Made by a program: the position numbers and the translations under genes. The notes beneath the pieces were generated by a model. The model did no database searches, was not told the origin of the DNA, and worked only from the letters and a program-made list of their open reading frames with translations. DNA of 63,237 bases, filler included, from Globobulimina sp. (taxonomy: Eukaryota), in the NCBI GenBank assembly GCA_003354225.1. It is 25 parts of 25 records of this genome, joined end to end, with 100 filler letters (N's around TTAATTAATTAA, not from the genome) between each part and the next. Parts side by side here need not be neighbours in the genome. Positions count along the whole stretch, not along the records: positions 5,072 to 7,506 come from PIVH01006698.1; 24 more parts are not named here. One strand, given 5' to 3'. Numbering within the stretch: position 1 is the stretch's first letter; the number at the start of each line of letters is the position of its first letter. Below are positions 2,537 through 63,237 of this stretch, one piece after another.

Positions 2537-2860
2537 CTCAAGAATATGATCACAGGTGCGTCACGCGCAACCGCGGCGTTTATCGTGATCGATGCACTTG
2601 AAGGTATACAAGAAAACTCGAAACGTCATGGGTATATGGCGTCTATGCTCGGTATCACGCAAGTCGCCGTATTGGTTAACAAGATGGATCTGGTCGACTA
2701 CGACGAGACAGTCTTCAAAAAGCTCGAGAAGGAATACTCTGACTTTCTAGAGAGATTCAATCTAAAGGCATTGACGTTCATACCGGTCAGTGCAATGAGT
2801 GGCGACAATATTGTAGAGCACGGAACGAATACGCCGTGGTACGACGGGGCTACAGTACAA
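2537..2860 (+). CDS. cysN: Bacterial sulfate adenylyltransferase large subunit (GTPase), internal fragment fused to retroelement DNA
   Basis: KNMITGASRA..A..VIDA.EG..ENSKRHGY...MLG....V.VNKMDLVDY...IPVSA..GDNI....TPWY is the CysN/EF-Tu-like G domain; GC is higher than the rest of the contig. Confidence 0.8.
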
Positions 2861-2861
2861 A

Positions 2862-4269
2862 ACCAATTCGACATCTTCGATAAATGAATTAATCCGACCA
2901 ATTAAATGCAAAATACCATCTTTGCCGAATCTAAAACAATATATAAAAACGTTAATTGACTGTAACTTCTTTGCAATTCGGGACTTGTCGGATTTCTTTC
3001 GTCAGATCGGTCTGTGTGAGGAGGACAGTAATTATATTTGTTACTCTCTTTTTGGTTTGGTTTGGAGAGATAGAAAACAACCTTACGGTGTAGCGTCTGC
3101 CCCAGCCAATAGCCAATATTTTGCGCAAATCTTAATATGGATATTGGAGAGGAAAAACACTTGTCCATATTGATGATTTTGTGTTGGGAGCACTGAAAGA
3201 AGCGGACTGTATTGAGATGGAGGCGAGATTTGACTCCTTGATGAAAGAGTTAAACGTCCAAGTTTCGTTAAAAGAGTCGGGGTTTATTCGGACCTGTCAG
3301 TCCGCTGTGATTTATGGGATAATGTTTGATTTGAAACATAAAATGGTGGGAATCCCCCCGGTGAAATATGCCAATTTCAAACAATTAATCCTATACACCC
3401 TAAAATATAGAGTCATCACTGGAGGTGCTCTTGAATCAATCTGTGGCACCATTATGCATTGGGCACAGTTAAAACAACCAACAAAAGCGTTATGTTGGAA
3501 TTTACTTCACTTTATTTATGACAATATCCGATCTGGAAAATATCCTAAAAATCACAATTTCATATTACCCCTTTCCATATTAAATGATCTGAAATATTGG
3601 TATTTCTATGCCGATCAGATTCTGAGAGTGCCAATGTCCGAGATATTAATGACCAAAAAAGTATCCATTTCAGCATCAACAGATGCCTCCTCCACCCATG
3701 GCGGCTATGTCATAGGTGGCTATTGGTCCAATTATCAATTTAATGAGAAGCATACTGCCGATTGGCATATTAACCAAAAAGAGGCTCATGTAATCCTGTC
3801 TGCGCTGTATACATTTCGTCATTATTTGACAGGAAAAACCATTCATTTGTTTGTTGACAATGAGTCCGTATATTATGCGATACGTAAAAAGTGGTCCTCG
3901 GCATATAATTTGATGCTATTCATAGATGAGTTATGTCATATGATGTTGGAATGTAAATTTTTGGTGTGGATCGATTGGATTTCATCCTCCACCAATGGTC
4001 TGTCAGACGCATTGTCCAGATGTAAATTGAATGATTTTTGGGCCATCGTAAATGATTATAATCTCAATATGGCGAATGGCAAAACAAAATCTGTCTATTT
4101 TGACCAATTCAAATTCCTAAATAAACAAATTAATAATAGTACAAATCCAATGGCTGACATCCAATATGACTTCAAAGAATATCAACAATTCATTACATTC
4201 TTGTGTCTTCCATTAAAGCAGCGAGCAAAACAAGGATACCCTAATTATGCGTCCAATTTCAAGATGTAA
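2862..4269 (+). pseudogene. Reverse transcriptase/RNase H of copy A, with a frame break at about 3135-3150
   Basis: The frame of ORF 2922 carries PYGVASAP. The frame of ORF 3181 extends upstream as YWRGKTLVHIDDFVLGA but meets a TAA at 3133-3135. Confidence 0.75.
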
Positions 4270-4314
4270 ACAACATTTCAAGTCGCTTAGAACTCTCCCA
4301 TTGTTAAAACATGT

Positions 4315-4971
4315 TTGTGTCATATTTTGTTAGATTGGTATCGAAAACGCTTCGCTCAAACACACTCGCTAGCCGCCAAACGACCAAAAACAGCGGAATT
4401 TATCGTAGAAACGAATGTATTGGATAAATGTATTGGGACCAAAGTGCAATACATCTCACATTTAAGAAATTGGGTGTTTTATTGCGTGACGCTAAAAGAG
4501 AGTCCCTTCCAATTGCCTATCAATGCATCGCTGGCATTATTCTGGATTGCGGATAGAATCCAACAGGCAAACAATACAAACTGTGTCCGCCAGGCGCAGT
4601 CTATGCTATTATGGCTCCACGATGTTGGTGACATTGATCCAATGTTCAACACTGATAATGAATATACCAGATTTAAATTGGCAGCAATGAAGCGGTTTGA
4701 CACACCGTCTGATTCTCGGTTGCCGCTACAGTTAAACCACATTATCCGATACGCACTAAAAGTAAACTGTGTCATTGACCATTATGACACCATTCCATTG
4801 GACACATTATTGAAAGTATTGCTGATTCAAATGTATCTCTTTACAATGTCCAGACCATCGGAGTTGCTCTTGTCCAGATATTCCGCGACCAAACAAGGTA
4901 TCAAATTTAAACATATAAAATTCTTTAAACCCAAACCCTCTGTTCCTTCCACTCACTTTCTCCGTATACAA
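4315..4971 (+). CDS. Tyrosine recombinase of copy A, 3'-truncated
   Basis: 'T...Y..HLRNW..YC' N-terminal core-binding region and catalytic 'LFTMSRPSELL', directly downstream of RNase H. Confidence 0.8.
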
Positions 4972-5190
4972 NNNNNNNNNNNNNNNNNNNNNNNNNNNNN
5001 NNNNNNNNNNNNNNNTTAATTAATTAANNNNNNNNNNNNNNNNNNNNNNNNNNNNNNNNNNNNNNNNNNNNAATGGCGAAATTCATGTGGAGAAAATTAG
5101 CACCGAGGTACAACAATCCGTTATAGAAAAGATATGTTGTATATAACTGAACAATGTACATAATCAGGAACAAAAATTCACTGTGACGGG

Positions 5191-5395
5191 AATAATAATT
5201 TATATGAGATAGTTTTCTCGGGACTTTTTACCGTTGGTTGATTGGTTGACATATGGCTTGGCTGCTTCGCATCCTAAGCAATATATCACAACAACAAACG
5301 AAAAAAAGACATTTCCGCCAACAAGTTGGCTTCCATTTCCCGAGAAAACTATCTCATATAAATTATTATGACTTTTTTATCTTGACGTCATGAGT
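5191..5395 (+). repeat. Left TIR containing an internal perfect 32-bp inverted repeat
   Basis: ATAATAATTTATATGAGATAGTTTTCTCGGGA at 5192-5223 and its reverse complement at 5338-5369; the TIR ends in TTGACGTCATGAGT. Confidence 0.95.
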
Positions 5396-5440
5396 AAATC
5401 CTAATCATAATTACTTTCAAGAAAAAACAGAAACACAATT

Positions 5441-5689
5441 ATGTCAATCATTACATTGATTTCAGAAACTCGGGCCTCACTCATTACACTGATTTTAGAT
5501 AATTATCGTGAAATCCTTGAAGTGATTTCAGAAACTCACATCAAAATCCTTAGAAGGATGGAAAGACTTCATTTAGCAATTAATGGTAGATTTCAGAACC
5601 ATACTGTCAGAATTATAGAAATTGAGAAGCAGTTAAAAGAACTTACGGCAGTTAAAAGCAGTAGTGGAAAAATTGATATAAATTTTTAA
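5441..5689 (+). CDS. Small helical/coiled-coil hypothetical protein (element unit 1)
   Basis: 82-aa ATG ORF preceded by a leader motif shared with unit 2. Confidence 0.6.
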   Translation: MSIITLISETRASLITLILDNYREILEVISETHIKILRRMERLHLAINGRFQNHTVRIIEIEKQLKELTAVKSSSGKIDINF

Positions 5690-5852
5690 TTATTCGTTTT
5701 CATTGTTATTTAAAATCAATTTTAATTTACGTTTTTCCGATATTGACGTCAAGACTTTGATGACTCATTGGAATTTCGGAAAAAGCACGAAAAAAAAAGA
5801 AAACAAAAAGGAAACTATTTATTATTGTCTGTTTTTAAATAATCAATCAATT

Positions 5853-6462
5853 TTAGTTTGGATTTTGCTCTTGAATGAATGATTCCAATCTTTGGATTTT
5901 CTTTTTTAAATAAACAACTTCATCTTGCAATAAGCCCACTTGCAACGCCAAATCTGGACAGCAAAAATTGTGTTTTTGGATTGGAGGTGGTAAGTTGGGT
6001 TTGTTTGGCATAATGGTGTACGGAAAAATTGAAATTTGCTGTTGGCTGTCACAATAATATGGGTTTGGCGATGGAAAAACAGCTGTGTCTTCCGGTGGTG
6101 AAGGTGTGTGACAATAAATGGATCGTTTTGAGGGTTGTTGCACTGTAAATTGTGGTGGCGATGGTCTTGGTTGTTGCTTTCTTTTTTTTTTGTTTGGTGG
6201 TGGCGGTGTCTTTTTTAACAATAAAATCTGAAATTTTAAAAACTCTCTTGATTACACCTTTAACTGACCGCATAATTTTTCCGTCTTGTAAAAAATTTAG
6301 CCAGAATTCACATTTGCAATCTTCTGGGCAAGGGCAAGGGCGAGTATGATATGTTTTCACATAACGTTCGCCGGATTGTAATTTTGTTAACATTCTTTCA
6401 TACGCATCGTCATCTACAAGAAAAAAAGGTTGTTCTTCAATTTTCTGTTTCCTTTTTGACAT
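5853..6462 (-). CDS. Hypothetical protein (element unit 2): Cys cluster, basic NLS-like and Pro-rich region, C-terminal leucine-zipper-like coil; two overlapping frames
   Basis: ATG at 6462 (MSKRKQK...CPCPEDCKC) follows the shared leader. Frame 5853-6221 (KKTPPPPNKKKRK...LQDEVVYLKKKIQRLESFI) overlaps it at an A-run, suggesting one gene with a frameshift. Confidence 0.5.
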
Positions 6463-6612
6463 TTTTTGTACTGTGTTTCTGTTTTTTCTTGAAAGTAATA
6501 GGAAGAGATGAAAGTGTTCCGAGTAATTATGATTAGGATTGACGTCAATATCGGAAATAATTTCGGAAAAAAACGGAAAAACGTAAATTAAGTTAAACAT
6601 TAAATAAATAAA

Positions 6613-6993
6613 TTAATTCCAATAAAGTTTAAAAAAAAACACTGGAGCATCGTGCTCCAAACTTTCATCATTCAATTTACAATCTCTTAAAGCCATTAAT
6701 TTAATAATGGCAAAGTCATCATTCTTTACCCTTTTCCGTCCAATGAATTTGCCTTGACAATCAATTGGAAATTCGTTTGATAGGCCCAATGAAATATCTT
6801 TAGGCGTTCCGTTTTCGCGGACAATATCATTAATGTTTCCTCGGATTTGCTGCACAATTTGTGCTTTTTTTCTATAATGCAACAATTCATAAAATGCACG
6901 AATATGCTCTGAAACATAGACTTTGCTCGGCATTGTTGGCTTGGTTTCTTCTTTACAATCTGAGGCTTCTTCTTCTTGTTTTTCTACGACCAC
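6613..6993 (-). CDS. Hypothetical protein (element unit 3); first ATG at 6933
   Basis: Open frame of 126 codons between TGACGTCA sites at 7050 and 6540. Confidence 0.5.
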   Translation of the reverse strand: MVVEKQEEEASDCKEETKPTMPSKVYVSEHIRAFYELLHYRKKAQIVQQIRGNINDIVRENGTPKDISLGLSNEFPIDCQGKFIGRKRVKNDDFAIIKLMALRDCKLNDESLEHDAPVFFFKLYWN

Positions 6994-7044
6994 AGCAAAA
7001 CCCGATCACGAATGATATTACAACTAAAATGTTATTGATGATTA

Positions 7045-7247
7045 ACTCATGACGTCAAGATAAAAAGTCATAATAATTTATATGAGATAGTTTTCTCGGG
7101 AAATGGAAGCCAACTTGTTGGCGGAAATGTCTTTTTTTCGTTTGTTGTTGGGATATATTGCTTAGGATGCGAAGCAGCCAAGCCATATGTCAACCAATCA
7201 ACCAACGGTAAAAAGTCCCGAGAAAACTATCTCATATAAATTATATT
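7045..7247 (-). repeat. Right TIR containing an internal inverted repeat
   Basis: Reverse complement of the left TIR with a few indels/substitutions; internal arms at 7070-7101 and 7216-7247. Confidence 0.95.
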
Positions 7248-7606
7248 GACGGGGTGGATCAACTTTTATTGGATTGGCAAACATGTCTTAATCCGAGAAG
7301 ATCGTGAACGATATCGTCGTTATGGTCCCAGAACAAATATTTGGCAAATCGTGGACGACGAGGATAAATTTGAAGATTATGCACAAGAATCCAAAGAAGA
7401 GAAGGAAGAGAAGGAAGAGAAGAAAACATTAATCGACAAAAAGACAACCAAAATCCGTAAACCATTTGGTGGATCTCTTGCGATGGACAATTTAAATTTA
7501 ACCTTCNNNNNNNNNNNNNNNNNNNNNNNNNNNNNNNNNNNNNNNNNNNNTTAATTAATTAANNNNNNNNNNNNNNNNNNNNNNNNNNNNNNNNNNNNNN
7601 NNNNNN

Positions 7607-10141: not shown

Positions 10142-10697
10142 CCACAGTTAAAATTTCATCAATTAAAAATATATCAGCATCAGAATGGATGGCAATTGAA
10201 AACCCGAGTCGAAGGTTCATCCCCGAAGAATATTTTTTAACCGGTGTTGAAATAAAATCACTTAGTCCTGAATATTCAACAATTTGATCCATTTTTGATT
10301 TTATTTCACCAATGGACATTCCAAGAATAGCACCATTCATGAAAATATTTTCAGTTCCTGTTAAATCGGGATGAAATCCGGCTCCCAATTCTATCAAGGG
10401 AGCAATTCTACCTGTTACATTCACATTACCTGTTGTAGGTGAAATAACATTCGCTACAAGTTTTAAGAGTGTACTTTTACCAGCACCATTTGGCCCATAC
10501 AACCCAATACTTTCACCTTTGTGTACTGAAAATGACATGTTTTTAATGGCATAAAATTGATGTTCCTCAAGCACATTTTTGTTTGGTTTTCGTTTAAAAA
10601 AAGAGACAAGGTCATCTCGCAAGGTACCATGGTATCCTTGACCTTTTGAATAAACCTTACTGACATCATTAAACTGAATTAAAGGGTTAGATGGCAT
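10142..10697 (-). CDS. wzt: Bacterial polysaccharide ABC exporter ATP-binding subunit, 3'-truncated
   Basis: Walker A GPNGAGKST, PLIELGAGFHPDLTG.ENI, PVKKYSSGM, IDE; the start overlaps the wzm stop. Confidence 0.92.
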
Positions 10698-11460
10698 CGG
10701 CAAATGACCTCTCAAACCGAATAAAAAATTTATAGGCAATAAAAAACAAGGCGCTTACGAACACTGCTTCAATTGCGAATTGCCATAGGATAATCCCTCG
10801 TTCTTCTATAATAACCCGTCGGAAGTTTTCTATGATATAGGTGAGTGGATTTAAAAATAAAATGAATTTCATTTTTATACTGACCGAATCAATTGAATAA
10901 AACACCGGCGAAGCAAAAAACCATGCCTGGATTAAGAAACCGGATGCCAATTTGACATCTCGATAAAATACATTGATCGTAGCCAATATCAAGCATATGG
11001 CAGCAGTGAACAACAAAAGTAATATAAACAAGGGAATGGTCCACAAGGTATTAAGTGTAAGTGGGATATTATAAAATACCAACATTGCAGCCAGAAACAG
11101 AATTGATATTAAGAAATCGGTTACAAATACGCTGATTCTGGAAAAAATAATCAATTCTCGTGGAAAATATATTTTTGTAATCAGGTCTCTGTGTTCGGGT
11201 AGAGAACTAATGGAAGCAGTTAGAGATGCTGAAAAAAGTGTCCAGGGGATTAGTGCTGAAAAATAAAAAATTGATCTTGGATATCCGTTTGTTTCAATGT
11301 TTAACACCAACCCAAAAACAACGACAAACAAGAGCATCATGCTTATGGGTTGAATCAACACCCAGATCACACCAATTGTGGTCTGTTTGTATCGAATTAA
11401 AAACTCGCGCCATACAAAAATTAAAAACAGATCTCTAAAATTTTTAAGTCTTTCGAACAT
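10687..11460 (-). CDS. wzm: Bacterial polysaccharide ABC exporter permease
   Basis: RYKQT.IG..W..IQP, ITKIYFPRE, SPVFY, NPL, FADAI: ABC-2 Wzm signature. Confidence 0.92.
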   Translation of the reverse strand: MFERLKNFRDLFLIFVWREFLIRYKQTTIGVIWVLIQPISMMLLFVVVFGLVLNIETNGYPRSIFYFSALIPWTLFSASLTASISSLPEHRDLITKIYFPRELIIFSRISVFVTDFLISILFLAAMLVFYNIPLTLNTLWTIPLFILLLLFTAAICLILATINVFYRDVKLASGFLIQAWFFASPVFYSIDSVSIKMKFILFLNPLTYIIENFRRVIIEERGIILWQFAIEAVFVSALFFIAYKFFIRFERSFADAI

Positions 11461-11761
11461 TTTTTAGTCTATACTTTACAATATTTGTCAAATTATTTGA
11501 AATTGAATCAATCAAAAAGGTAATAAAGCCTAATCCATAATGGTTTTTACAATTATGGCATACCACACTCTTAGCATAGAGAGCAAATATCGTGCTAACA
11601 ATAGACTTTTTTGAACAGGTCTTGTCCCTTGGCATTTTTATTGCTGTTATTCTTATCGATAAGTATATTGACTTTAATTAATTTTGGATTGATAATTTAT
11701 ACATTTAAGCTAGGCATCGTGTTCGGAAAAAATAAATTCTATTTTTTACACTTGGAAATAA

Positions 11762-12304
11762 ATGATAAAAATTTCAAAAAATATCAGTGGCTTTACCCTA
11801 ATCGAATTAATGGTTGTAATCACCATCATTTCATTGCTTCTTATAATGGGTCCTAATTGGGGACAAATCATAGCTGATCAACGATTAAAAGGTGCGGCCA
11901 AAGATATCTATTCTAATCTGCAAAAGGCCAGATTAGAGGCGATCAGCCAAAATACAATGATTGGCATACAATTTAATGCCACACCCTATACCACCCAAGG
12001 AGGTGTTGGAAGTTATACAGTCTTTATTGACGATGGTATTGGTGGGGGGACAGCTGACGATTTGGTTAAACATAATGATGAGCTCACAAAAGCCAGTGTG
12101 ACCATGCCTAAAAAGGCAACCTTGATACAAGTAAACTTAACTGGCGGGGCAACAGCCCTTGGATTCAATAGTAGAGGCCTTCCTGCGAGAAACAGAATAG
12201 GAAATATACAAGTACGCAACAGTACGCGCTGGTATCAAATAATTCTATCGAGTGCCGGAAATATAAGGATTCTAGTTAGTGGTGACGGTGTGACATGGCA
12301 ATAG
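11762..12304 (+). CDS. Type IV minor pilin, FimT/FimU (GspH) family
   Basis: Prepilin motif GFTLIELMVVI; 'LQKARLEAI'; 'FNSRG'. Confidence 0.85.
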   Translation: MIKISKNISGFTLIELMVVITIISLLLIMGPNWGQIIADQRLKGAAKDIYSNLQKARLEAISQNTMIGIQFNATPYTTQGGVGSYTVFIDDGIGGGTADDLVKHNDELTKASVTMPKKATLIQVNLTGGATALGFNSRGLPARNRIGNIQVRNSTRWYQIILSSAGNIRILVSGDGVTWQ

Positions 12305-12576
12305 AAAAAAAAATTATTAGAAAAAATATAAAATATAAGAAAAATGGATTCACATTAATTGAAGTGATGATAACCATGGCAATCTCCACAATTGTTCTTG
12401 GCGGAATTTTTGCTATATACTCTAATCAGCAAAAATCCTATGTCAGTTCGGACCGTATTGCTGAAATGCAACAGAATATCAGGGCTGCTATGCTAATCAT
12501 GTCATCTGAAATAAGAGAAGCGAGTTCTGCCCCCAGTCAAAAAGCAAATGGAGGAATTTTATCTGCAAGTTCTGCA
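12295..12576 (+). CDS. Type IV minor pilin, PilW-like, 3'-truncated
   Basis: GFTLIEVMITMAI..IVL; 'EMQQNIRAAM..M..EIR'; overlaps the upstream pilin gene. Confidence 0.82.
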
Positions 12577-17305: not shown

Positions 17306-17814
17306 AGTTTACTCGAAAAGTAAAACTTCTTAATGCTGCATACCAAATAGTAGGAAACCTTCCCCAAGATAAAGTTAAATCAAAGAAAAATATGTACTTT
17401 TTCGAAAAAGACATTACTCTTCTTGTTTTTAAACAAATAGACGCTGTTAAGATAACTGTATACTTTTTTAAATCTCTTCTACAGCCTTTTTTAACGCATC
17501 CACTAATAAATTATGATGTATTTCTTCGGCAAGAATGCTTTTTAAAACACTTGACTTCTGGATCTTTTACTAAAGGAAGAACTTCTTTTAACTGCTCAAG
17601 CATTAAAACTTCAGCTTCTTTCATCCCTCTTATATATTGAAGATATNNNNNNNNNNNNNNNNNNNNNNNNNNNNNNNNNNNNNNNNNNNNTTAATTAATT
17701 AANNNNNNNNNNNNNNNNNNNNNNNNNNNNNNNNNNNNNNNNNNNNAGAAAATAGATATTTCTAATAGATAACAAGAATAGAAACACACTAACAAATAGT
17801 ATAGAGTAGATAAC

Positions 17815-19149
17815 ATGGCATCAGTCTTATGCGAACAGCAACAGTGGGTAGATACTTCAGGCGCTCCTTTAGTGGGAGGGTTTGTTTATATTGGCACGCA
17901 GGGTAATGACCCGGTTGCCAATCCTAAAGCTATTTTCTCTGATAGAGCCTTAACGGTAGCTCTTGCCAATCCACAGACTTTAGACAGTTTAGGACAATCA
18001 ACCAATAAGATTTGGACTGATGGCACGTATTCGATGAAGATCGAAGACCTTAATAATGTTCAAATATATCTGGAGCTAGACAACGGAGAGACGGCGGAGA
18101 CGGGGACAACAACGCTTTCTAACGTTCAAGGCGCGGATACCATCACGGCGGACGCTTCAGCTACTATAACAGCTTATACAGACCTGGAGATATATACTTT
18201 TACATCAGTCCAGGCTAATACTGGGGCTGTAACGCTTAATATTGATAGTGTTGGCGCTAAATCTGTCCTAAAGAATCATACTGAAGCAATAGAGGCGGGA
18301 GACTTTGAAGCTGATCAGGTTATCAGAGTTGCTTACAATGCCACGGATGATGTTTTTGAATGGACAAATCAGAATATAAAAAATGTCATTGCAGACATTG
18401 GCTTATTGCCTCAATCATATTTATCTAATGTTCAAATATCAAATAACGTAACAGATGCTGATCATGATTTAGATTTTACAGCGTTCTCAACAAGAGATTC
18501 AACAAACGCGGAAAATATAGTTAATATAGCGCTCACCAAACAGTTTGATACAGCATGGGCGGCGGGTACGGATGCGGGTGGCTTGGCATCCAGTCTTGTG
18601 CCTTTGGTGGCTGATACTTGGTATCATGTGTTTGCTGTTTTGATTGGAGGCGCTGCTGATATTATAGCTGATACCAGCCTAACCTGTGCCAATGGTGTTA
18701 CAGATGCGAGTGTTACTAATTTCAGGCGTATTTGTTCGTTTATGACGGATGGAACAACACCGGGTAACATTTTAGCTTTTAGACATTTGAACGACCAATT
18801 TTGGTGGGATGATGCGCCTTATGATATTAATGATACTTCAACAGGCACAGCGGCAAAAACAGATACTATTAGTACGCCGATTGATATCAAAACAACCGCT
18901 ATAGTGGCGGTGCAATACCTTTCGGGAACGTCTCCTACAACGTATGGCAATATATGGAATCCTGACCAAACCGACCCAGGAACACCGGGTCAAGGAAATG
19001 CTAATTTCACGCAAGTAGTGTCAAATAATTTTTCTACCCATAACATCCAGGTAATGACAAATACAAGTAGTCAAATACAATATCAAACGAGTGCGAGTGG
19101 TACGGTTAACGTTCAAACTGCTGGCTGGATAGACACGCGAGACAGATAG
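17815..19149 (+). CDS. Phage tail fibre/tailspike with a P22-type head-binding-like N-terminus
   Basis: G.PL.GG.VYIG....DP..NP......L.NP..LD..G....IW.DG.YSMKI.D; NTGA.TLNI..VGAK fibre motif; Thr/Ala/Asp-rich. Confidence 0.8.
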   Translation: MASVLCEQQQWVDTSGAPLVGGFVYIGTQGNDPVANPKAIFSDRALTVALANPQTLDSLGQSTNKIWTDGTYSMKIEDLNNVQIYLELDNGETAETGTTTLSNVQGADTITADASATITAYTDLEIYTFTSVQANTGAVTLNIDSVGAKSVLKNHTEAIEAGDFEADQVIRVAYNATDDVFEWTNQNIKNVIADIGLLPQSYLSNVQISNNVTDADHDLDFTAFSTRDSTNAENIVNIALTKQFDTAWAAGTDAGGLASSLVPLVADTWYHVFAVLIGGAADIIADTSLTCANGVTDASVTNFRRICSFMTDGTTPGNILAFRHLNDQFWWDDAPYDINDTSTGTAAKTDTISTPIDIKTTAIVAVQYLSGTSPTTYGNIWNPDQTDPGTPGQGNANFTQVVSNNFSTHNIQVMTNTSSQIQYQTSASGTVNVQTAGWIDTRDR

Positions 19150-19157
19150 GCTAAACT

Positions 19158-19289
19158 ATGGCTAAAAAACCACAGAGATTAAAAGGTAAGGGTAAGAGAT
19201 TAACCGGTCCTAAAAGATTAAAAGGAAAAGGCACACGTTTAAAAGGTAAGGGTAAGCGGTTATTTCCAAAAGGAACACGTAGCGCATGA
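19158..19289 (+). CDS. 43-aa highly basic repeat peptide (not in the ORF track)
   Basis: MAKKPQRLKGKGKRLTGPKRLKGKGTRLKGKGKRLFPKGTRSA; fills the intergenic gap and overlaps the next gene by ATGA. Confidence 0.75.
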   Translation: MAKKPQRLKGKGKRLTGPKRLKGKGTRLKGKGKRLFPKGTRSA

Positions 19290-19588
19290 AACATTTGCCA
19301 ACTATCTTAGCTGGAATCCAGATTGTCGCAGTATTTGTAGCTGTTGGTGTCTGGGTGGGAAGCCAAAATGATCTTAAAGAGATTATAGAGAGAGCCGATA
19401 ATCAAGTTATGCTCCAGGGTGAGCGGAATAACGATAATTATCAGTTATTATTAAAAATAGCTCAAAAGCAACAACAGCAACTTGACGAAATGTCTAGTTT
19501 TCTGACCTTCAAATATCCTGGGTATAAACCAAAAGGAAGTCCTGCAACTTTTTTTCCGTTAGAGTTAAACCCAGAATACAGGGATTAA
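19286..19588 (+). CDS. Phage membrane-anchored coiled-coil protein (lysis-region candidate)
   Basis: N-terminal TM helix then a Gln-rich coil; tightly packed upstream of the endolysin. Confidence 0.6.
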   Translation: MKHLPTILAGIQIVAVFVAVGVWVGSQNDLKEIIERADNQVMLQGERNNDNYQLLLKIAQKQQQQLDEMSSFLTFKYPGYKPKGSPATFFPLELNPEYRD

Positions 19589-19589
19589 A

Positions 19590-19892
19590 ATGACAACCAT
19601 GCAAAAGATAAGCACCGTAGGCGTTCTGGCAGCCATCACAGGCGCTTGGTTTGGTTTTGCGGGCCTTCCCCCTTACGCCTCGGCTACTGACCTTGCAGAG
19701 ACTAATGTGACGGCGCGTGCAGCATTACAACAGGCTATGGAGAACAGAGCGGACGCACAAAGGCAACGTGTTTTTGATCAACAGTTTTTTATAGCAAAGG
19801 CTGGCAGTACACCGGAACGCCAGCGGGAATTAAAAAGACTAAAGGCGGCATTGAAGAAATACGAGGAAGCTAAAGATAGAGCTTATAAGTAG
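19590..19892 (+). CDS. Phage membrane-anchored/secreted coiled-coil protein
   Basis: N-terminal hydrophobic segment and helical C-terminus; operon-like spacing. Confidence 0.6.
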   Translation: MTTMQKISTVGVLAAITGAWFGFAGLPPYASATDLAETNVTARAALQQAMENRADAQRQRVFDQQFFIAKAGSTPERQRELKRLKAALKKYEEAKDRAYK

Positions 19893-20180
19893 TGCTATAT
19901 GAACATTATTCACAAGTTGATTGGGATTCTGAAAGATGGCCAAACTTTAGTCCTATTGAGTTTGCTTGCTCTCTCACTTGTTGCGGTAGTGTCTATATCG
20001 ACAAAGCCATGCTTGACATGTTACAATCAGCTAGAAAACAATCCGGGCGCAGTTTTCGTATTAATTCAGGACACAGATGTATTAGGCACAACAAGGCCGT
20101 GGGTGGCTCCCCTAAAAGCCGACACCTTAGGTTGGCATTTGATATCTCCCTGAACGGACATCTCCACTTTGAACTCAAAC
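19892..20180 (+). CDS. Peptidase M15A (endolysin-type), 3'-truncated
   Basis: WPNFS..EFAC...CG, INSG.RC..HNKAVGG...S.H....D. Confidence 0.88.
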
Positions 20181-20672: not shown

Positions 20673-20882
20673 CTGCATAATGGTGTTGATTTCTCATTAA
20701 TTTACCTACAAATGTTTCCCTACAGAAATTTCTGCACCTCGTGGTCTGTAGCAAGGTATAAGTTTTTCTTCTTAAAATTGAGCAAAGTTTTTCGTCATAA
20801 ACTTTCAAATATCTTTTTTTTTCAACTTCAATCCACTCGTTTTATACAAATTCAAAGTCCAACTGCAAAATAAAAGACGAAG

Positions 20883-22714
20883 ATGGAAGAGAACAAACAT
20901 AACACATCAAATCCATTAGCAAACATCTTAGAAAAGAATAATTTACACGATGCGTTAAATGAAATATTAAGCAAAAATGGTTTGGATTTCGACTGCCTGC
21001 AACAGTTAACTGACGAGAAAGAAACCGATGATTTATGTCAAGAATTAGGTCTTAAAATTAGCCAAAAATTAAAATTAAAAAAATTAATAAAAAAAATACA
21101 TGAGGAGGCAGCACGCCACACACAAACTGATAAACATTACAATCGCATGCATATCGCAGACGAAGTGCATGATTATATAGAAATACCTGAAAATATTAGA
21201 GTTATTCTTGATACTCCAGAATTTCAACGTTTACGGTATTTGAAACAATTGGGGGCCACTTACTTTGTATTTCCAGGCGCCACACATAATCGGTTTGAAC
21301 ACTCATTGGGTGTAATGCATTTAGCGCGGAAATTGGTGCTTAATTTGAGAATGAACCAATCAGATTTACAAATAACAAATGATGAAATATTTTGTGTATC
21401 TGCAGCTGGCTTAGTTCACGATTTGGGACATGGCCCCTTTTCACATGTTTTTGACCATGAATTTGTTACGTTTTATTTTTTATATCTCTTAATTTAATTT
21501 GTGTACATAAATCATGCATTCTTTGTTGGCATTTATTGTTTCCAGGTGCCATCAATGACAAATCACTCTTTTCGCCACGAAGATATGTCGATTAAATTAA
21601 TAAAAAAATTATTTGCCGATAATGAAATATTTATTGAGAACAACTCATTGGAGCTAATATGTGCATTAGTATCGCCATCGACGCATAAAGAGATTGTGGA
21701 TGCCTATAAAGCAAAGGGTCGCGGGTTTTTATTTCAAATAATAGCAAACGAATCGAACGGCATTGATGTGGATAAATGGGATTATTTCTTGCGTGATTCG
21801 CATAATTTAAGTTTAGACATTTCCTTTAAATATACACGCTTATTAACCCATTGCCGAGTGATCAAAGACAACATTTGTTTTGCTGATAAAATAAATTATG
21901 ACGTGCAGATATTATTTAATACTCGCTACGATTTATTCAAACGGGTATACTCGCACAAGACCTCCAAAGCAGTCGAATATATGATTTGTGATATATTGCG
22001 ATTTGCCAATGATAAATTTAAAATTACTGAAAAAATTCAAAATGCAGGTTTGGAATAATATATATTTGAGAGTTGAGAGGTAGCAATTTCTGAATTACAC
22101 ATAGGTGATTTTATGGAATTAACTGATAATATTATTAGTCGTATCCAATGGGAACCGATCACCCTTTGTGATCATAATAAATCGGATCGGAAAGCAAATG
22201 AGAATTTATTGAAAGCGCAAGCATTAATAAACAGGATCTATATTCGCGACCTCTACAAATGTGTGGCATATATTTTGTTAGAATCACGAACTGTGGCAAT
22301 TCATGAAGCGATATTAAAGAAAAATAATGGCAATAATAAAATGCTTATGGAGTGTGATGATGATACCGATAATGATATAGATGCTAAAGAGGAGTTTGAT
22401 GATAGCAGCGAGGTATCATTCAGTAATAAGAAAATTGACTATCATTTTGTAGAAAATGCGTGGAGAAACGAGTTGTTTTCTATCGTAAGAGACGAAAATA
22501 AAACAGACGGATATGAAGGAATGGAGGAAACAGATATTATTTGTCAATTAATGAGCATTTCATACGGATCGGAAAGAGAGCATCCATTGAAAAACGTGTT
22601 TTTTTATAATGCGCGGGAGGCAGAAAGCAGTAAAACCATTGAAAACTATCGTTCTGTCTCATCCTTAATTGTGTCAGAAGGATTTCAAGAGGAAAAAATA
22701 AAAAAATGGAATTC
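20883..22714 (+). CDS. SAMHD1: SAMHD1-like dNTP triphosphohydrolase; introns 21465-21545 and 22048-22104; 3'-truncated
   Basis: SAM-like N-terminus; DTPEFQRLRYLKQLG..YFVFPGATHNRFEHSLGV, HDLGHGPFSH, DVDKWDY..RD, VYSHKT; the GT..AG introns restore the frame. Confidence 0.92.
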
Positions 22715-22960
22715 NNNNNNNNNNNNNNNNNNNNNNNNNNNNNNNNNNNNNNNNNNNNTTAATTAATTAANNNNNNNNNNNNNNNNNNNNNNNNNNNNNN
22801 NNNNNNNNNNNNNNACTCCCAGATTTTGTTCATGTTCGACCAGATAGATCTCACCTCATAAACTATGTAATTATAAGTTTCTTTATTTTCAACATACAGA
22901 GTTGGTGTGACTATACCTATAAATCTTACATGGAAAAACAAATAATTTGGTGGTGTTTCA

Positions 22961-28578: not shown

Positions 28579-28660
28579 TTTTCAACTTATTTTCAATAAA
28601 ATCAACACTTTAACTTTCATCTTTTTTCTACAGTTTTTTACTCTCAACGCTACTTAAATC

Positions 28661-30148
28661 ATGTTCCTGGCAACTTTACCATCTCTGCAGGGAGAAGAAC
28701 ATGACCACGACCGTACCTCTACCATCGACTTTTTAGAGTCACAATGGCGATTCGAGACAGATGGTCTGTTGAAAGAAAGCCTGGAAAGGAAATCCAAACA
28801 AATGCTTGCAGACAAAGAAAATGAATACAATGCACTAATCACCAAACAAAAGGCTGAGATCAAACTGCTGCATAAAAAGTTAAGGCAACAACAGCAGATC
28901 AGAATGGTGGATACCAAAATATTGAGGAAGGCACATTCTCTCAATACACGAAGACTGCTCATTATCACTAAACAAAGGACTCAAATCCAAGCATTCAAGA
29001 AACAGTTACAAAATAAAGCAAAATGCGACAATATTCGGCGACAAATAAAAATATGGAAAGATCGCTGTATGAATATGGAAGTATTAGCAATTGCGAGGTT
29101 GAAAGCAAATGAATGTCTAAAAAATAAACACAAAATACATCAAAATAAAATTAAAAAAAATGAAATTCGAAAATCATTTGGTTGGCAATGGAAAGACAAT
29201 GATAAAATATGGAGGTCATATCCCTATAATATAACAAAACGTGTTGAAGCATTGAAAAGTATGACATCAATGAAGTATATGGCACCAAAAGCGCCCAATT
29301 ATATGTATGAAATCACAAGGTTATCACAACATGCTGGTATACAGAAAAATATTCTGACCAATGTCTGCAGAAATGTCCGGCGTAGCTTTGTCAGTCAATA
29401 TGTGCTGAACGACGATGGCTATCCCGATTGTTGGCATCGTTTAAGTTGTGGTGAATATGGAACGCATAAATTGAATGAAATAGCATTGTCGCATCCCATT
29501 GGACAACATGTTTTAAACAAAGTGTATGAGAGCGTCTGCAAAAGTATTAAAATCGTTAAAATTGAAGCTGTACAAAATCAAATGTTATATGATTCGTATA
29601 TGAATGAGAGGAGAAAACTAATTAAGGTATCATTCCGATGAGGATTTAATATATAAAAAACGAAATTAAATATGTCACATTTCATGCAGTACAGTCATGT
29701 AGTTATATATTATAACTTTAATTTCGTTTTTTAGTATAAATTCTGACTGGAACCATACCAAAAGTTAAACAGAGGGAAAAATTTGAATGAGAAAGAATTA
29801 TTTCATGGAACCGCTGTGGCTGCGATGGAAAATATCCAAATTCAAGGCTTTCGCAAAGAATTTAGTAGCAGAGCGCGGTTTGGTGAGGGTACGTATTTTG
29901 CAAAAGATGCAAATTGTTCATTACATTATTCACAACCAACTACGAAGGGTATTTATAAACTGTTTTTATGTCATGTTATTTGTGGCGAAATGCATGTTGG
30001 TGATGAAAATTATACATTAACCACCTGGCCGCTCAAAAATAATGGATTGATGTACGATTCATTGGTTGATCATGAACAGTATCCGCATATCGTGGTTATT
30101 CATAAAAATGTTCGGGCATATCCTATGTTTGTTATTCATTGTAAATGA
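28661..30148 (+). CDS. Coiled-coil + WWE + PARP catalytic protein (PARP7/11/12-like mono-ART); intron about 29627-29764
   Basis: WQWKD....W..Y (WWE); KIEAVQN..LY..Y, NEKELFHGT, FGEGTYFA, YDSLVD...P.I.VI......YP. Confidence 0.85.
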
Positions 30149-60706: not shown

Positions 60707-60997
60707 NNNNNNNNNNNNNNNNNNNNNNNNNNNNNNNNNNNNNNNNNNNNTTAATTAATTAANNNNNNNNNNNNNNNNNNNNNNNNNNNNNNNNNNNNNN
60801 NNNNNNGCGCCAGCGCCAAAAATACGCTGTGTGTGGAACACTATATATTTTTATGTTATTTTTGTGTTTGTTCCTTTCGTTACATCTATTTAATATTATA
60901 AGTACTTTGCCCACTTTCGTCAAAGCAAAAAACCTCTCTGTACACACAAGTCACTCTACACACACTACCACCATATAACACACACATAACACAATAG

Positions 60998-62836
60998 TTA
61001 CGTTTAAAAAACGAGTGGCTCAGCAAATTACAGCGCTTACCATCCAAAACAGTCCTTCAACGAAAAATCTATAATTTAAATGCTTGGAAAAAAGAGGCCA
61101 AAACACATCGGTCCAAATTGGCGATCGAGAAGCTGATGGTAGAATTAGAGCTCGGCTTTGATTTAGGTTTTGACATAAAAAATCGGCCAGAGCCCCGACA
61201 TAAAGTCCGTAACCCACCAGCTGATTGTAACACTAGTATCGGTCTTTCGAAAACCGTTTTTAAGTGGTATACAAAAAACCAGTTACTTGGCCCGTTTACC
61301 ACGGAAGAAGCCAGAAAAATTGGTGTCACGGTAAGCCCCATTCACGGTGTACCAAAACCAGACGGATCAACACGACCCGTCATTAACCACTCTTACCCGA
61401 AAAGACGTTTTGAAACATCTGTCAATGGACATCTTGACGAAGATCTATGCACCGTCCAATACATTAACTTGCAGGCAATCGTGGCAACCGTACAAAGAGA
61501 AGGCCCCGGGGCTTGGGTATGGACACGTGACTTGGAAGATGGTTACTTCAACTGTATCCCTAGACAAGAACAAATGAAATTTTTAGCCTTCCCATGGGCC
61601 GGAAAAATATGGATACCAACAGTCATGACGTTCGGTTTAAGCTCTGCTCCAAAAATTTTTACTGACTTTATGACGGTACCCTTAAAAGCTATCCGACAAT
61701 TGGATCCAGCAATCTCATATCGAGAGTGCAAAGACGATAAGGTTTTTCCGATATTGATGAAAAACGAGCCGGATAAAATTGTCAGTTTTTGCCACAATAT
61801 TTACCCCTTAATTCGAAGCTACGTCGACGATATCATAGGGGTCCATAAAAATCACGAGGCAGCCTTGCGACAATTTGAGAACGCCGGGAGAAAATTAGAG
61901 GAGCTTAACCTAAGACCAAAAATTAAAAAAGATCAACACCCCTCGCAAGCAGCGATAGTTTTAGGTGCGTTGATTGATACCGTTAGGCAGCGAGTATTTT
62001 TACCAGACGAAAAAAGAAAACGGTACATCACAGATATTGAGGAAGTCCTTCAACTTCACAGGGTACATAAATCCCGGATTCATACAATCATTGGCAGAAC
62101 ACGACATAGTGCCCAGTTTTCACGACCACTTGCCGTGTTGGCTCGTAACTTAGACGCTTTTGTGTATGCAACCCCACCAACACAGCAATATGTCGATATG
62201 AACAACGACCTGCGCGATGATTTACGTTTCATCATCTGGGGAATTAATTTCGCAGCCGATACCGGCTCATCCTTTGATTATGTTGTAAAACCAGCGAATT
62301 CTGCTGACATCATCGGATATACAGATGCAGCCAAGGTTTATGGAGGTGTTGGTGGCTATTTACATGAACAAAAAGGAAGTTGGTTTCAGTGTCATTGGAA
62401 TAATATAGAAATGTCAGATCCCACTAAACGGGATATACAGTGGAGAGAGTTGGTCGCTGTCTATATTCTGTTAAAAATTAACAAAGAGCGACTACGCAAT
62501 AAAGCAATTACTGTTTATTGTGACAATGAACCCGTGTGTTGGATGATTAGTAAATTTCGGGCGGTTTTAACTAGACCCGACTTGCAGTGTGTCCTGCGAA
62601 AAATTGGTCAACTATTGATTGAGAACGAAATTCATTTATGGATGGAACATATCGCAGGAGAGAAAAATATCACTGCGGATAGATTATCTCGGTTTTATTA
62701 TAACCCTCTGAGTGAGTGTGCTGTGCCACTTAAAAACAGAGCTACCAGATGTCAGAAGGAAGTACAAGAGATCACTACATTATGTGAAAAATTCGAGATT
62801 GACCGACAGTATTTGATAAAAGACAAACAAGACTGA
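60998..62836 (+). CDS. Reverse transcriptase/RNase H of copy B (frame open from 60998, no ATG at its 5' end)
   Basis: GPF, SPI.GVPKPDG..R...NHS.P...SVN, DLEDGY, FGLSSAP.IF, YVDD, YTDA, ELVA, CDN, N..ADRLSR. Confidence 0.92.
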   Translation, partial: LRLKNEWLSKLQRLPSKTVLQRKIYNLNAWKKEAKTHRSKLAIEKLMVELELGFDLGFDIKNRPEPRHKVRNPPADCNTSIGLSKTVFKWYTKNQLLGPFTTEEARKIGVTVSPIHGVPKPDGSTRPVINHSYPKRRFETSVNGHLDEDLCTVQYINLQAIVATVQREGPGAWVWTRDLEDGYFNCIPRQEQMKFLAFPWAGKIWIPTVMTFGLSSAPKIFTDFMTVPLKAIRQLDPAISYRECKDDKVFPILMKNEPDKIVSFCHNIYPLIRSYVDDIIGVHKNHEAALRQFENAGRKLEELNLRPKIKKDQHPSQAAIVLGALIDTVRQRVFLPDEKRKRYITDIEEVLQLHRVHKSRIHTIIGRTRHSAQFSRPLAVLARNLDAFVYATPPTQQYVDMNNDLRDDLRFIIWGINFAADTGSSFDYVVKPANSADIIGYTDAAKVYGGVGGYLHEQKGSWFQCHWNNIEMSDPTKRDIQWRELVAVYILLKINKERLRNKAITVYCDNEPVCWMISKFRAVLTRPDLQCVLRKIGQLLIENEIHLWMEHIAGEKNITADRLSRFYYNPLSECAVPLKNRATRCQKEVQEITTLCEKFEIDRQYLIKDKQD

Positions 62837-62949
62837 CTTTCTTGATAGCATTTTACTTGTTTAACTAAAAAATTGTTTTTTTTTTTTTTATATATTTTCA
62901 TCTCATTTTTTCACATTTTCAAAACACTAACATTCCTTCACATTTTCAG

Positions 62950-63237
62950 TTCGCACTCGAAGACAGGACAGCATACGATTTAGGCTTAGCGGCTGACGCA
63001 GAACGAACGAAAAAGAATGATGCATCATACATCCGGTACTATTTCAAATTTTGCAAAATAAAACAGTTACACACTTTGAATTTCGTTACCGAGATGACAC
63101 CGGAAAAAATGATGGGTCGGTTTTTAGGTTGGTTATATTGGGAAAAAACCTTCAAAGGTAAAGATATACCTCACGGAGTTGCTAAAGTTTGCCTAACAGC
63201 TCTAGGCAAATATTGGAATGATAATGGATTAACTTTC
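62950..63237 (+). CDS. Tyrosine recombinase N-terminus of copy B (not in the ORF track; runs off the window)
   Basis: Open frame FALEDRTAYDLGLAADAERTKKNDASYIRYYFKFC...MGRFLGWL...LTAL..YW...G, resembling a YR core-binding domain, in the expected position. Confidence 0.65.

Follow-up and report, generated by a model that had tools for sequence, protein, structure and literature searches.

The window analysed here, a 63,237-base stretch of DNA from the Globobulimina sp. assembly GCA_003354225.1, contains a discrete unit of 2057 bp (5191-7247) that is a small, unusual mobile element, and its link with polinton-like viruses (PLVs) can be demonstrated. It has terminal inverted repeats (TIRs) plus a putative target-site duplication (TSD) as its boundaries, carries three open reading frames (ORF1, ORF2, and ORF3), and fills nearly all of the piece in which it lies (5072-7506, 2435 bp, 33.8% G+C). 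We tentatively regard it, with a little less than even confidence, as a recently inserted, non-autonomous element of the PLV/virophage/Polinton gene pool that was moved in trans by a retroviral-type integrase. If this is true, the mobilome of Polintons, PLVs, and virophages has its own gene-carrying, non-autonomous hitch-hikers in eukaryotic DNA, a tier so far known mainly from the transpovirons of mimiviruses.

The original prediction had described the two ends as near-perfect inverted copies, and this was borne out by alignment. The ungapped inverted arms at 5195-5377 and 7062-7244 are 99% complementary over 183 nt, and with one gap allowed the match between 5195-5400 and 7040-7244 comprises 203 identities in 206 positions, which gives TIRs of about 210 bp. 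The left TIR (5191-5400, plus strand) starts with AATAATAAT, and the right TIR (7040-7247, minus strand) starts inwards with AATATAAT. Only two inverted pairs of at least 60 nt are present in the 63-kb window, the other (74 nt, 82%) lying between different contigs. The terminal 29-mer of the element gave no match in the viral contigs.

Direct repeats of GACGGG flank the element on the left (5185-5190) and on the right (7248-7253), just where they had been noted before, and represent the putative TSD; the 7-bp alternative TGACGGG (5184-5190 and 7247-7253), which had been mentioned as well, can also be read. Six bp is the better reading, because under it both termini begin with AATA (left AATAATAATTTATATGAG, right inwards AATATAATTTATATGAG), a symmetry lost under the 7-bp reading, in which the tips mismatch. 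The termini thus read AATAAT... and ...ATATT, with a triple AAT at the tip. The claim that the cargo holds no recognisable recombinase stood up to searches of Pfam (five translations) and PHROGs (four translations), where no recombinase, polymerase, helicase, or capsid match was obtained in any frame; the rows at E<=1 were all weak, unrelated, and of unknown function. With TIRs, a TSD, and no transposase, the element is structurally a non-autonomous TIR element.

The nature of the window has to be kept in mind when such a structure is judged. Splitting at N runs yields 25 pieces of near-equal size (2431-2436 bp, in descending size order) joined by linkers of 100 nt, N44-TTAATTAATTAA-N44; TTAATTAATTAA is found 24 times in the window in steps of about 2535 bases, each time within N runs. 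What the window presents is therefore no single stretch of a genome but small unplaced contigs strung together, and anything in it that spans a linker is artificial. Three sequencing runs, all from one sample and study, were listed as sharing sequence with it; one of them contains 0.93 of the sampled words and may be the source itself, and no RNA run was among them. The contig with the element being one of many such leftovers (about 2.43 kb each) from an assembly of mixed origin, one has to consider that the structure arose as an artefact of assembly or amplification, either as an inverted chimera or through the collapse of a repeat on so small a piece; we find this very hard to credit. An inverted template-switch chimera predicts reverse-complement flanks, whereas the flank repeat is direct; moreover, the right flank holds an open frame and is unrelated in sequence to the left, the interior of 1.64 kb is unique, and genuine homologues of ORF2 exist.

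It is ORF2 that ties the element to PLVs. Its first frame (6217-6462, minus strand, ATG at 6462-6460) encodes a domain of about 80 residues (ORF2-N) and continues into low-complexity sequence up to a stop at 6049. The N-terminal ~80 residues are 43-54% identical to an accessory protein of PLV contigs of 17-18 kb; thus, residues 10-81 align with a 241-aa protein of an 18-kb IMG/VR contig with 40 identities in 76 positions (53%, E 2e-24). The family embraces six protein clusters, whose sources are JGI, ENA, Logan, NCBI, and Tara, and relatives were located on nine distinct contigs from IMG/VR, Tara, and lake metagenomes, two of them binned into bacterial metagenome-assembled genomes. The domain occurs alone (86 and 105 aa), after an N-terminal extension in a 147-aa protein (on contig L030), and with varied tails (171-248 aa). 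An alignment of ten sequences contains 15 invariant columns, including three cysteines, within a core of about 70 residues (F, D, R, L, K, C, C, C, N, L, G, R, G, K, and V), and the copy in the window keeps 15 of the 15. Judged from these residues, ORF2-N belongs, as a conserved member, to a family of PLV accessory proteins. As to the two members on contigs binned as bacterial (L030, 605-1048, and L031, 4817-4948), these are probably mis-binned viral contigs; the member on L030 adjoins a 747-aa ORF in G+C-rich sequence.

The contigs carrying the family encode an AEP_C962R and D5-type primase-helicase, two GIY-YIG nucleases, a Peptidase_S74 fibre, a class-3 lipase (Lipase_3), a methyltransferase, a RING protein, and a Pox_A32-type ATPase (26.8 bits vs a cut-off of 22.8) beside a 436-aa candidate capsid gene. 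Two related PLV contigs, L020 and L025 (16.8 and 17.6 kb), assemble as circles because their 121-nt ends are identical. The sections of PMC7805220 on this subject describe aquatic PLVs as abundant circular genomes of about 17.8 kb with lipase and endonuclease clusters, and the carrier and related contigs match these published descriptions. Within the PLV contigs, the ORF2-type gene sits in the variable region after the primase-helicase. It is found in 3 of the 22 loci that carry a conserved 301-aa protein, many of these loci being partial, and is absent from the circular genomes L020 and L025; it is accessory even among PLVs.

The likeness between the element and PLVs (aquatic contigs of 17-18 kb, e.g., L008, L009, and L029) is thus confined to one domain, whose invariant residues are kept. 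Genes for a primase-helicase, a lipase, and an A32-type ATPase set the PLV contigs apart from the element, and no other gene or DNA is common to the two. PLVs are characterised by a double jelly-roll major capsid protein, a minor capsid protein, and a packaging ATPase. No capsid or ATPase match was obtained in the element, with the reservation that Pfam covers capsids poorly; a major capsid protein can nevertheless be discounted, because none of the ORFs (82, ~200, and 106 aa) is long enough to encode one.

The form of the insertion points to the same circle of elements. The relevant sections of PMC8969392 and PMC3014272 ascribe to Mavericks/Polintons TIRs that measure hundreds of bp, together with a TSD of 6 bp, as in the element. 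Duplications of 5-6 bp are stated for the rve integrases of PLVs and mavirus (parts of PMC12220804 and PMC8547959), and of 5-7 bp for integrated PLVs (PMC7805220, in the part concerned). Long TIRs, a 6-bp TSD, and a shared gene together make a helper from the PLV/Polinton world the most economical source of the integrase. Integration would then be carried out by a retroviral-type (rve, DDE) integrase provided in trans by a co-resident Polinton, PLV, or virophage; this helper enzyme would recognise the inverted ends and make staggered cuts of 5-6 bp.

The original prediction had already thought of Polinton/Maverick-type integrases. Its hunch gains indirect support, because the ORF2-N domain belongs to a protein family of PLV contigs, through which the element is linked to the Polinton gene pool, yet the element is not itself a Polinton, because its termini differ and the capsid, pPolB, and integrase genes are missing. 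It measures 2 kb vs 15-40 kb, ends in AA..TT, and yielded no pPolB, rve integrase, capsid, ATPase, or protease gene with Pfam and PHROGs. Nor is it a PLV, a transpoviron, or a parvovirus, since their defining genes are absent by the same searches. In the literature searched, no description of so small a PLV-related TIR element was found; the supplementary tables of PLV papers, in which TIRs, TSDs, and protein clusters are listed, may include this protein family.

Several observations weigh against an origin in the PLV/virophage/Polinton gene pool with transfer by a helper integrase. Only one copy is seen, with nothing similar in the other 24 contigs of the window, and a scan of 35 other ORFs of the window yielded neither rve nor pPolB nor a capsid gene. 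The termini, AA..TT, are neither of the Polinton kind, which Kapitonov and Jurka are said to have described in 2006 as 5'-AG ... CT-3', nor TG..CA, as retroviral-type ends are. The circles L020 and L025 are without TIRs. The PLV contigs contain no relative of ORF1, of ORF3, or of the ORF2 tail and no DNA similarity to the element beyond 56 nt within the domain, and the octamer TGACGTCA, which marks the upstream regions in the element (see below), is found in none of seven PLV-type loci (L001-L007). ORF1 is an orphan, the best Atlas score (0.86) being under the lead level of 0.9, and so is ORF3, for which neither a word-sharing candidate nor a usable Atlas match was obtained. ORF2 is split over two frames. 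Finally, the element stands on a 2.4-kb unplaced piece of an assembly of mixed origin, with bacterial and phage-like contigs alongside.

The three ORFs themselves have the appearance of genes. The three longest stop-to-stop frames in 5401-7040 comprise 187, 132, and 130 codons, and none of these lengths was reached in 2000 mononucleotide shuffles. The layout is ambisense: ORF1 runs inwards from the left end, while ORF3 and then ORF2 run inwards from the right end. ORF1 (5441-5689, plus strand) encodes 82 aa, whose N-terminal half consists of 11-residue (33-nt) repeats and is coiled-coil-like. Since the repeats are visible in the DNA as three 33-nt units, they could be binding-site iterons; translation is favoured because ORF1 has its leader and start in common with ORF2. 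One weak PHROG match (E 0.0041) was recorded for ORF1, and 26 pattern matches in viral contigs left none confirmed. ORF3 (6613-6933, minus strand) has 106 aa from the ATG at 6933-6931 and 130 codons from stop to stop; none of its 11 pattern matches in viral contigs was confirmed. The single HMMER match to ORF3 in the full scan, a 677-aa tandem-repeat protein (E 1.7e-5), is unconvincing as a relative and was rejected because its score sums repeated matches of 37-49 residues.

The second frame of ORF2 (5853-6251, minus strand, stop at 5853-5855) encodes a basic KKKRK stretch resembling a nuclear localisation signal (NLS), a proline-rich linker, and a C-terminal leucine zipper, in which leucines at i, i+7, i+14, and i+21 occupy positions 2, 9, 16, and 23 of DLALQVGLLQDEVVYLKKKIQRLESF. 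The change of frame is located within 6180-6229, a stretch with runs of A6 and A10, and may be due to slippage, to a genuine frameshift, or to an error in the assembly. That an intron of 37 nt connects the frames was rejected, as the homology to PLVs crosses that very stretch (R66, G70, K73, and V75 are invariant). For the second frame, 20 pattern matches in viral contigs yielded no confirmed one, and it has no similarity to the tails of the PLV proteins. An exact look-up of six ORF variants in the protein collection found none present (0/6), and phage records (tblastn), plasmid records (blastn), and Rfam contained no match to the element. The cargo as a whole, i.e., a PLV-type domain with an NLS-like stretch and a zipper, a coiled-coil protein, and an orphan, would act on the helper or the host and not in transposition.

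For the ORF2-N domain, a structure could be modelled. A first AlphaFold2 model was too weak (pLDDT 59.4), and the model built from the ten-sequence alignment reached pLDDT 80.4 and pTM 0.67, with a predicted strand-helix-strand-strand-strand-strand order. Foldseek returned no match to it at E<=0.001 in PDB and BFVD. In VIA-align, the best row, the WWE domain of TRIP12 (Z 4.6, rmsd 3.6, 61 residues), is at background level by the tool's own rating; 8 of the first 14 rows are WWE domains, and none of the 48,161 chains stands at Z 5. WWE-like binding of nucleotides or ADP-ribose by ORF2-N is a lead and no more. The element nevertheless provides a handle on a PLV accessory family of unknown function, the domain being joined here to an NLS-like stretch and a leucine zipper.

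Each of the three ORFs is preceded by the same short motif. The octamer TGACGTCA is the classical CRE/ATF site, to which bZIP factors bind. The 63-kb window has four copies of it, where 0.83 are expected, and all four are inside the element. One is located at 5383-5390 within the left TIR, 50 nt before ORF1, one at 6540 before ORF2, and one at 7050-7057 in the right TIR, upstream of ORF3; the fourth, at 5744, lies between the 3' ends of ORF1 and ORF2, so that three of the four are upstream of ORFs. The ORF1 leader (5394-5440, plus strand) is near-identical to that of ORF2: 5410-5437 equals 6472-6499 over 28 nt (100%), 5394-5415 matches 6522-6543 over 22 nt (95%), and both leaders continue into ATG TCA A, the ORF2 copy having an extra segment of 27 nt. 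The ORF2 upstream module (6472-6607, minus strand) comprises repeated TTTCCG motifs, the octamer at 6540-6547, and the shared leader. Its part before the octamer (6539-6607) recurs inverted at 5706-5757, within an intergenic, near-palindromic module (5706-5800) that is centred on the octamer at 5744-5751 and has TTTTCCGA on either side; TTTTCCGA stands beside these octamers, and three of its six sites in the window are in the element.

According to the mechanism we propose, the ends would act as inward promoters, the left for ORF1 and the right for ORF3, with an internal copy for ORF2, and these TGACGTCA promoters would be read by a bZIP/CREB-type factor of the host. The target TGACGGG opens with TGACG, a half-site of the element's own TGACGTCA; this is a single insertion, with which coincidence is equally compatible. 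Another candidate promoter motif, AAAATTGA, an early-promoter motif of mimivirus, was rejected: of its 23 window sites, a total not above chance, five fall in the element (5669, 5716, 5847, 6025, and 6437), none is positioned as a promoter, and an A+T-rich composition alone may explain them.

The ends are also able to fold back. In the left end, 5192-5223 and 5338-5369 form a perfect stem of 32 nt that encloses 114 nt, and in the right end 7070-7101 pairs with 7216-7247. As single-stranded DNA, the left end has a predicted folding energy of -50.8 kcal/mol vs a mean of -16.8 for shuffled sequences (z -10.3), and none of 200 shuffles was as good. The 114-nt interior taken alone gives a long imperfect arm and a small GCCAAC..GTTGGC arm (z -4.35, 0 of 200 shuffles). 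Because this interior folds into arms by itself, the whole end is predicted to be a branched, Y-like hairpin. Together, the foldback ends and the TGACGTCA cassettes offer compact candidate cis elements.

Palindromic ends, a short TSD, and the lack of a transposase are what the element has in common with foldback and MITE-like transposons (MITE, miniature inverted-repeat transposable element), such as FB and Galileo of the P superfamily, and they bring up another origin: a DNA transposon of the ordinary cut-and-paste kind, non-autonomous and belonging to an unassigned DDE superfamily with a 6-7 bp TSD, which captured or exchanged a PLV-like domain. Superfamilies with TSDs of this length include foldback-type P/Galileo, Dada, and IS3EU. 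Such an origin would be in keeping with the admissible 7-bp reading TGACGGG, with the lack of anything else shared by the PLV contigs and the element, and with the variability of the homologous gene among PLVs (3 of 22 loci, none in L020 or L025). On the other hand, the 6-bp reading gives better terminal symmetry, and the ORFs, all three of them intact, give the impression of a coordinated gene set and not of captured fragments, since a copy of one element-specific motif precedes each and two have their leader in common. Foldback and MITE-like transposons are unlike the element in this respect, as it has three apparently intact genes with promoter-like modules of their own; MITEs, which are present in many copies per genome, are usually shorter than 1 kb and non-coding, whereas the element has 2057 bp and three ORFs above chance length. 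We consider the ordinary transposon rather unlikely, though to be taken seriously, and even so the element would be a clean case of a TIR element with a virus-derived gene.

Hairpins at the ends are also reminiscent of linear replicons. The element could be the integrated copy of a tiny, linear, hairpin-ended episome or virus-like replicon, ambisense, gene-poor, and transpoviron-like, that is copied by a helper virus or by enzymes of the host and integrates occasionally; its promoters would lie in the inverted ends, as in ambisense densoviruses. Each end folds into a long branched hairpin, the genes point inwards from either end, preceded by TGACGTCA sites within or next to the repeats, and the terminus is a triple AAT, terminal reiterations being typical of protein-primed linear replicons. 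Ambisense densoviruses show the same combination of branched hairpins within inverted terminal repeats and genes running inwards from both ends; they differ in size (4-6 kb vs 2 kb) and in having an NS1/Rep and a capsid gene, and a clean TSD such as that of the element is not the usual mark of parvoviral integration. Indeed, no Pfam or PHROGs match to NS1/Rep (an HUH endonuclease with a superfamily 3 helicase) was obtained in the ORFs of the element, nor is there a helicase, polymerase, or capsid gene by these searches. Since complete ends and a clean direct repeat indicate the action of an integrase or transposase and not illegitimate recombination, a replicon of this kind is a distinctly improbable source.

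Transpovirons, linear plasmid-like elements of mimivirus factories, are a parallel to such a replicon. Like the element, they are small and gene-poor and have genes in common with virophage-type viruses; the sections of PMC3671162 devoted to them mention 6-8 genes, two of them in common with a virophage, and list a superfamily 1 helicase as well as Zn-ribbon and transposase DNA-binding subunit genes. By Pfam, the element has neither a helicase nor a Zn-ribbon gene, and it is integrated with a TSD in eukaryotic-looking DNA. Transpovirons have long TIRs and a size of about 7 kb. If the element does belong to the gene pool of PLVs, virophages, and Polintons, the helper might, speculatively, use the foldback ends and the AAT-AAT-AAT terminus for end replication or packaging, by analogy with protein-primed and hairpin replicons. 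A bolder view, which we think unlikely, would make the element the first very small (2-kb, three-gene) satellite-like "mini-transpoviron" of the Polinton/PLV/virophage world, from a little-studied or uncultured eukaryote, with hairpin ends through which a helper would replicate or package it, CRE-type cassettes on an ambisense genome, a cargo in which a PLV-family domain is joined to a leucine zipper, and a borrowed helper integrase for entering chromosomal DNA with a duplication of 6 bp, and thus a third tier of parasitism below PLVs and virophages.

As to the target, it had been claimed that deletion of the element restores a host exon. The continuous frame was found again: excision of the element with one repeat gives NQEQKFTVTGWINFYW / NQEQKFTVTGWINFYWIGKHV, open to the end of the contig. 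The host-exon part of the claim did not hold equally well. To the left of the junction, just 17 codons are open. More would be so only with a GT..AG intron of 60 nt at 5108-5167, in which case the left flank (5072-5184, plus strand) would consist of a possible exon at 5072-5107, this intron, and an exon from 5168; another contig of the window has introns of comparable shortness. In the right flank (7254-7506, plus strand), a frame stays open for 86 codons, counted from 7249, to the point where the contig breaks off. A search for its 86-residue product among longer proteins gave 142 candidates, of which none scored, and so no homologue. Because the flanks available are short (119 bp on the left and 253 bp on the right) and without a homologue, insertion into a host exon is just plausible. 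An introner, i.e., an intron-generating transposon whose boundaries provide or adjoin GT..AG and which is thereby cleanly spliced out, was rejected by inspection, as the right end neither contains an AG nor is closely followed by one and the nearest GT..AG pairing leaves in-frame stops.

The other pieces of the window carry, for the most part, genes of eukaryotic type: Patched/SSD, HD, PARP, SNAPC3, TLDc-SAM-ubiquitin, MutS, choline-transporter-like, C-type lectin, and reverse transcriptase/RNase H. The PARP catalytic-domain ORF (28658-30148) is preceded by a 327-aa ORF without a Pfam match, in which a W..W..D..W..Y stretch looks WWE-like by eye. At least two pieces (10142-12576 and 17747-20180) are probably bacterial or phage-derived by their look; one of them has an ABC_tran and ABC2_membrane transporter with a GspH/N_methyl pseudopilin, and the other a fibre-like 449-aa ORF beside a Peptidase_M15_3 gene at 42% G+C. 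Retroelement ORFs with RT_RNaseH and RVT_1 matches and long ORFs downstream are present on the contigs 2537-4971 and 60807-63237; these may be DIRS/Ngaro-like, recombinase matches not having been sought there. The HD-domain (SAMHD1-like) gene at 20874-22766 contains a pair of short introns of the GT..AG type, about 80 and 56 nt long, whose donors, GTTACG and GTTTGG, serve as a guide to the intron style of the host.

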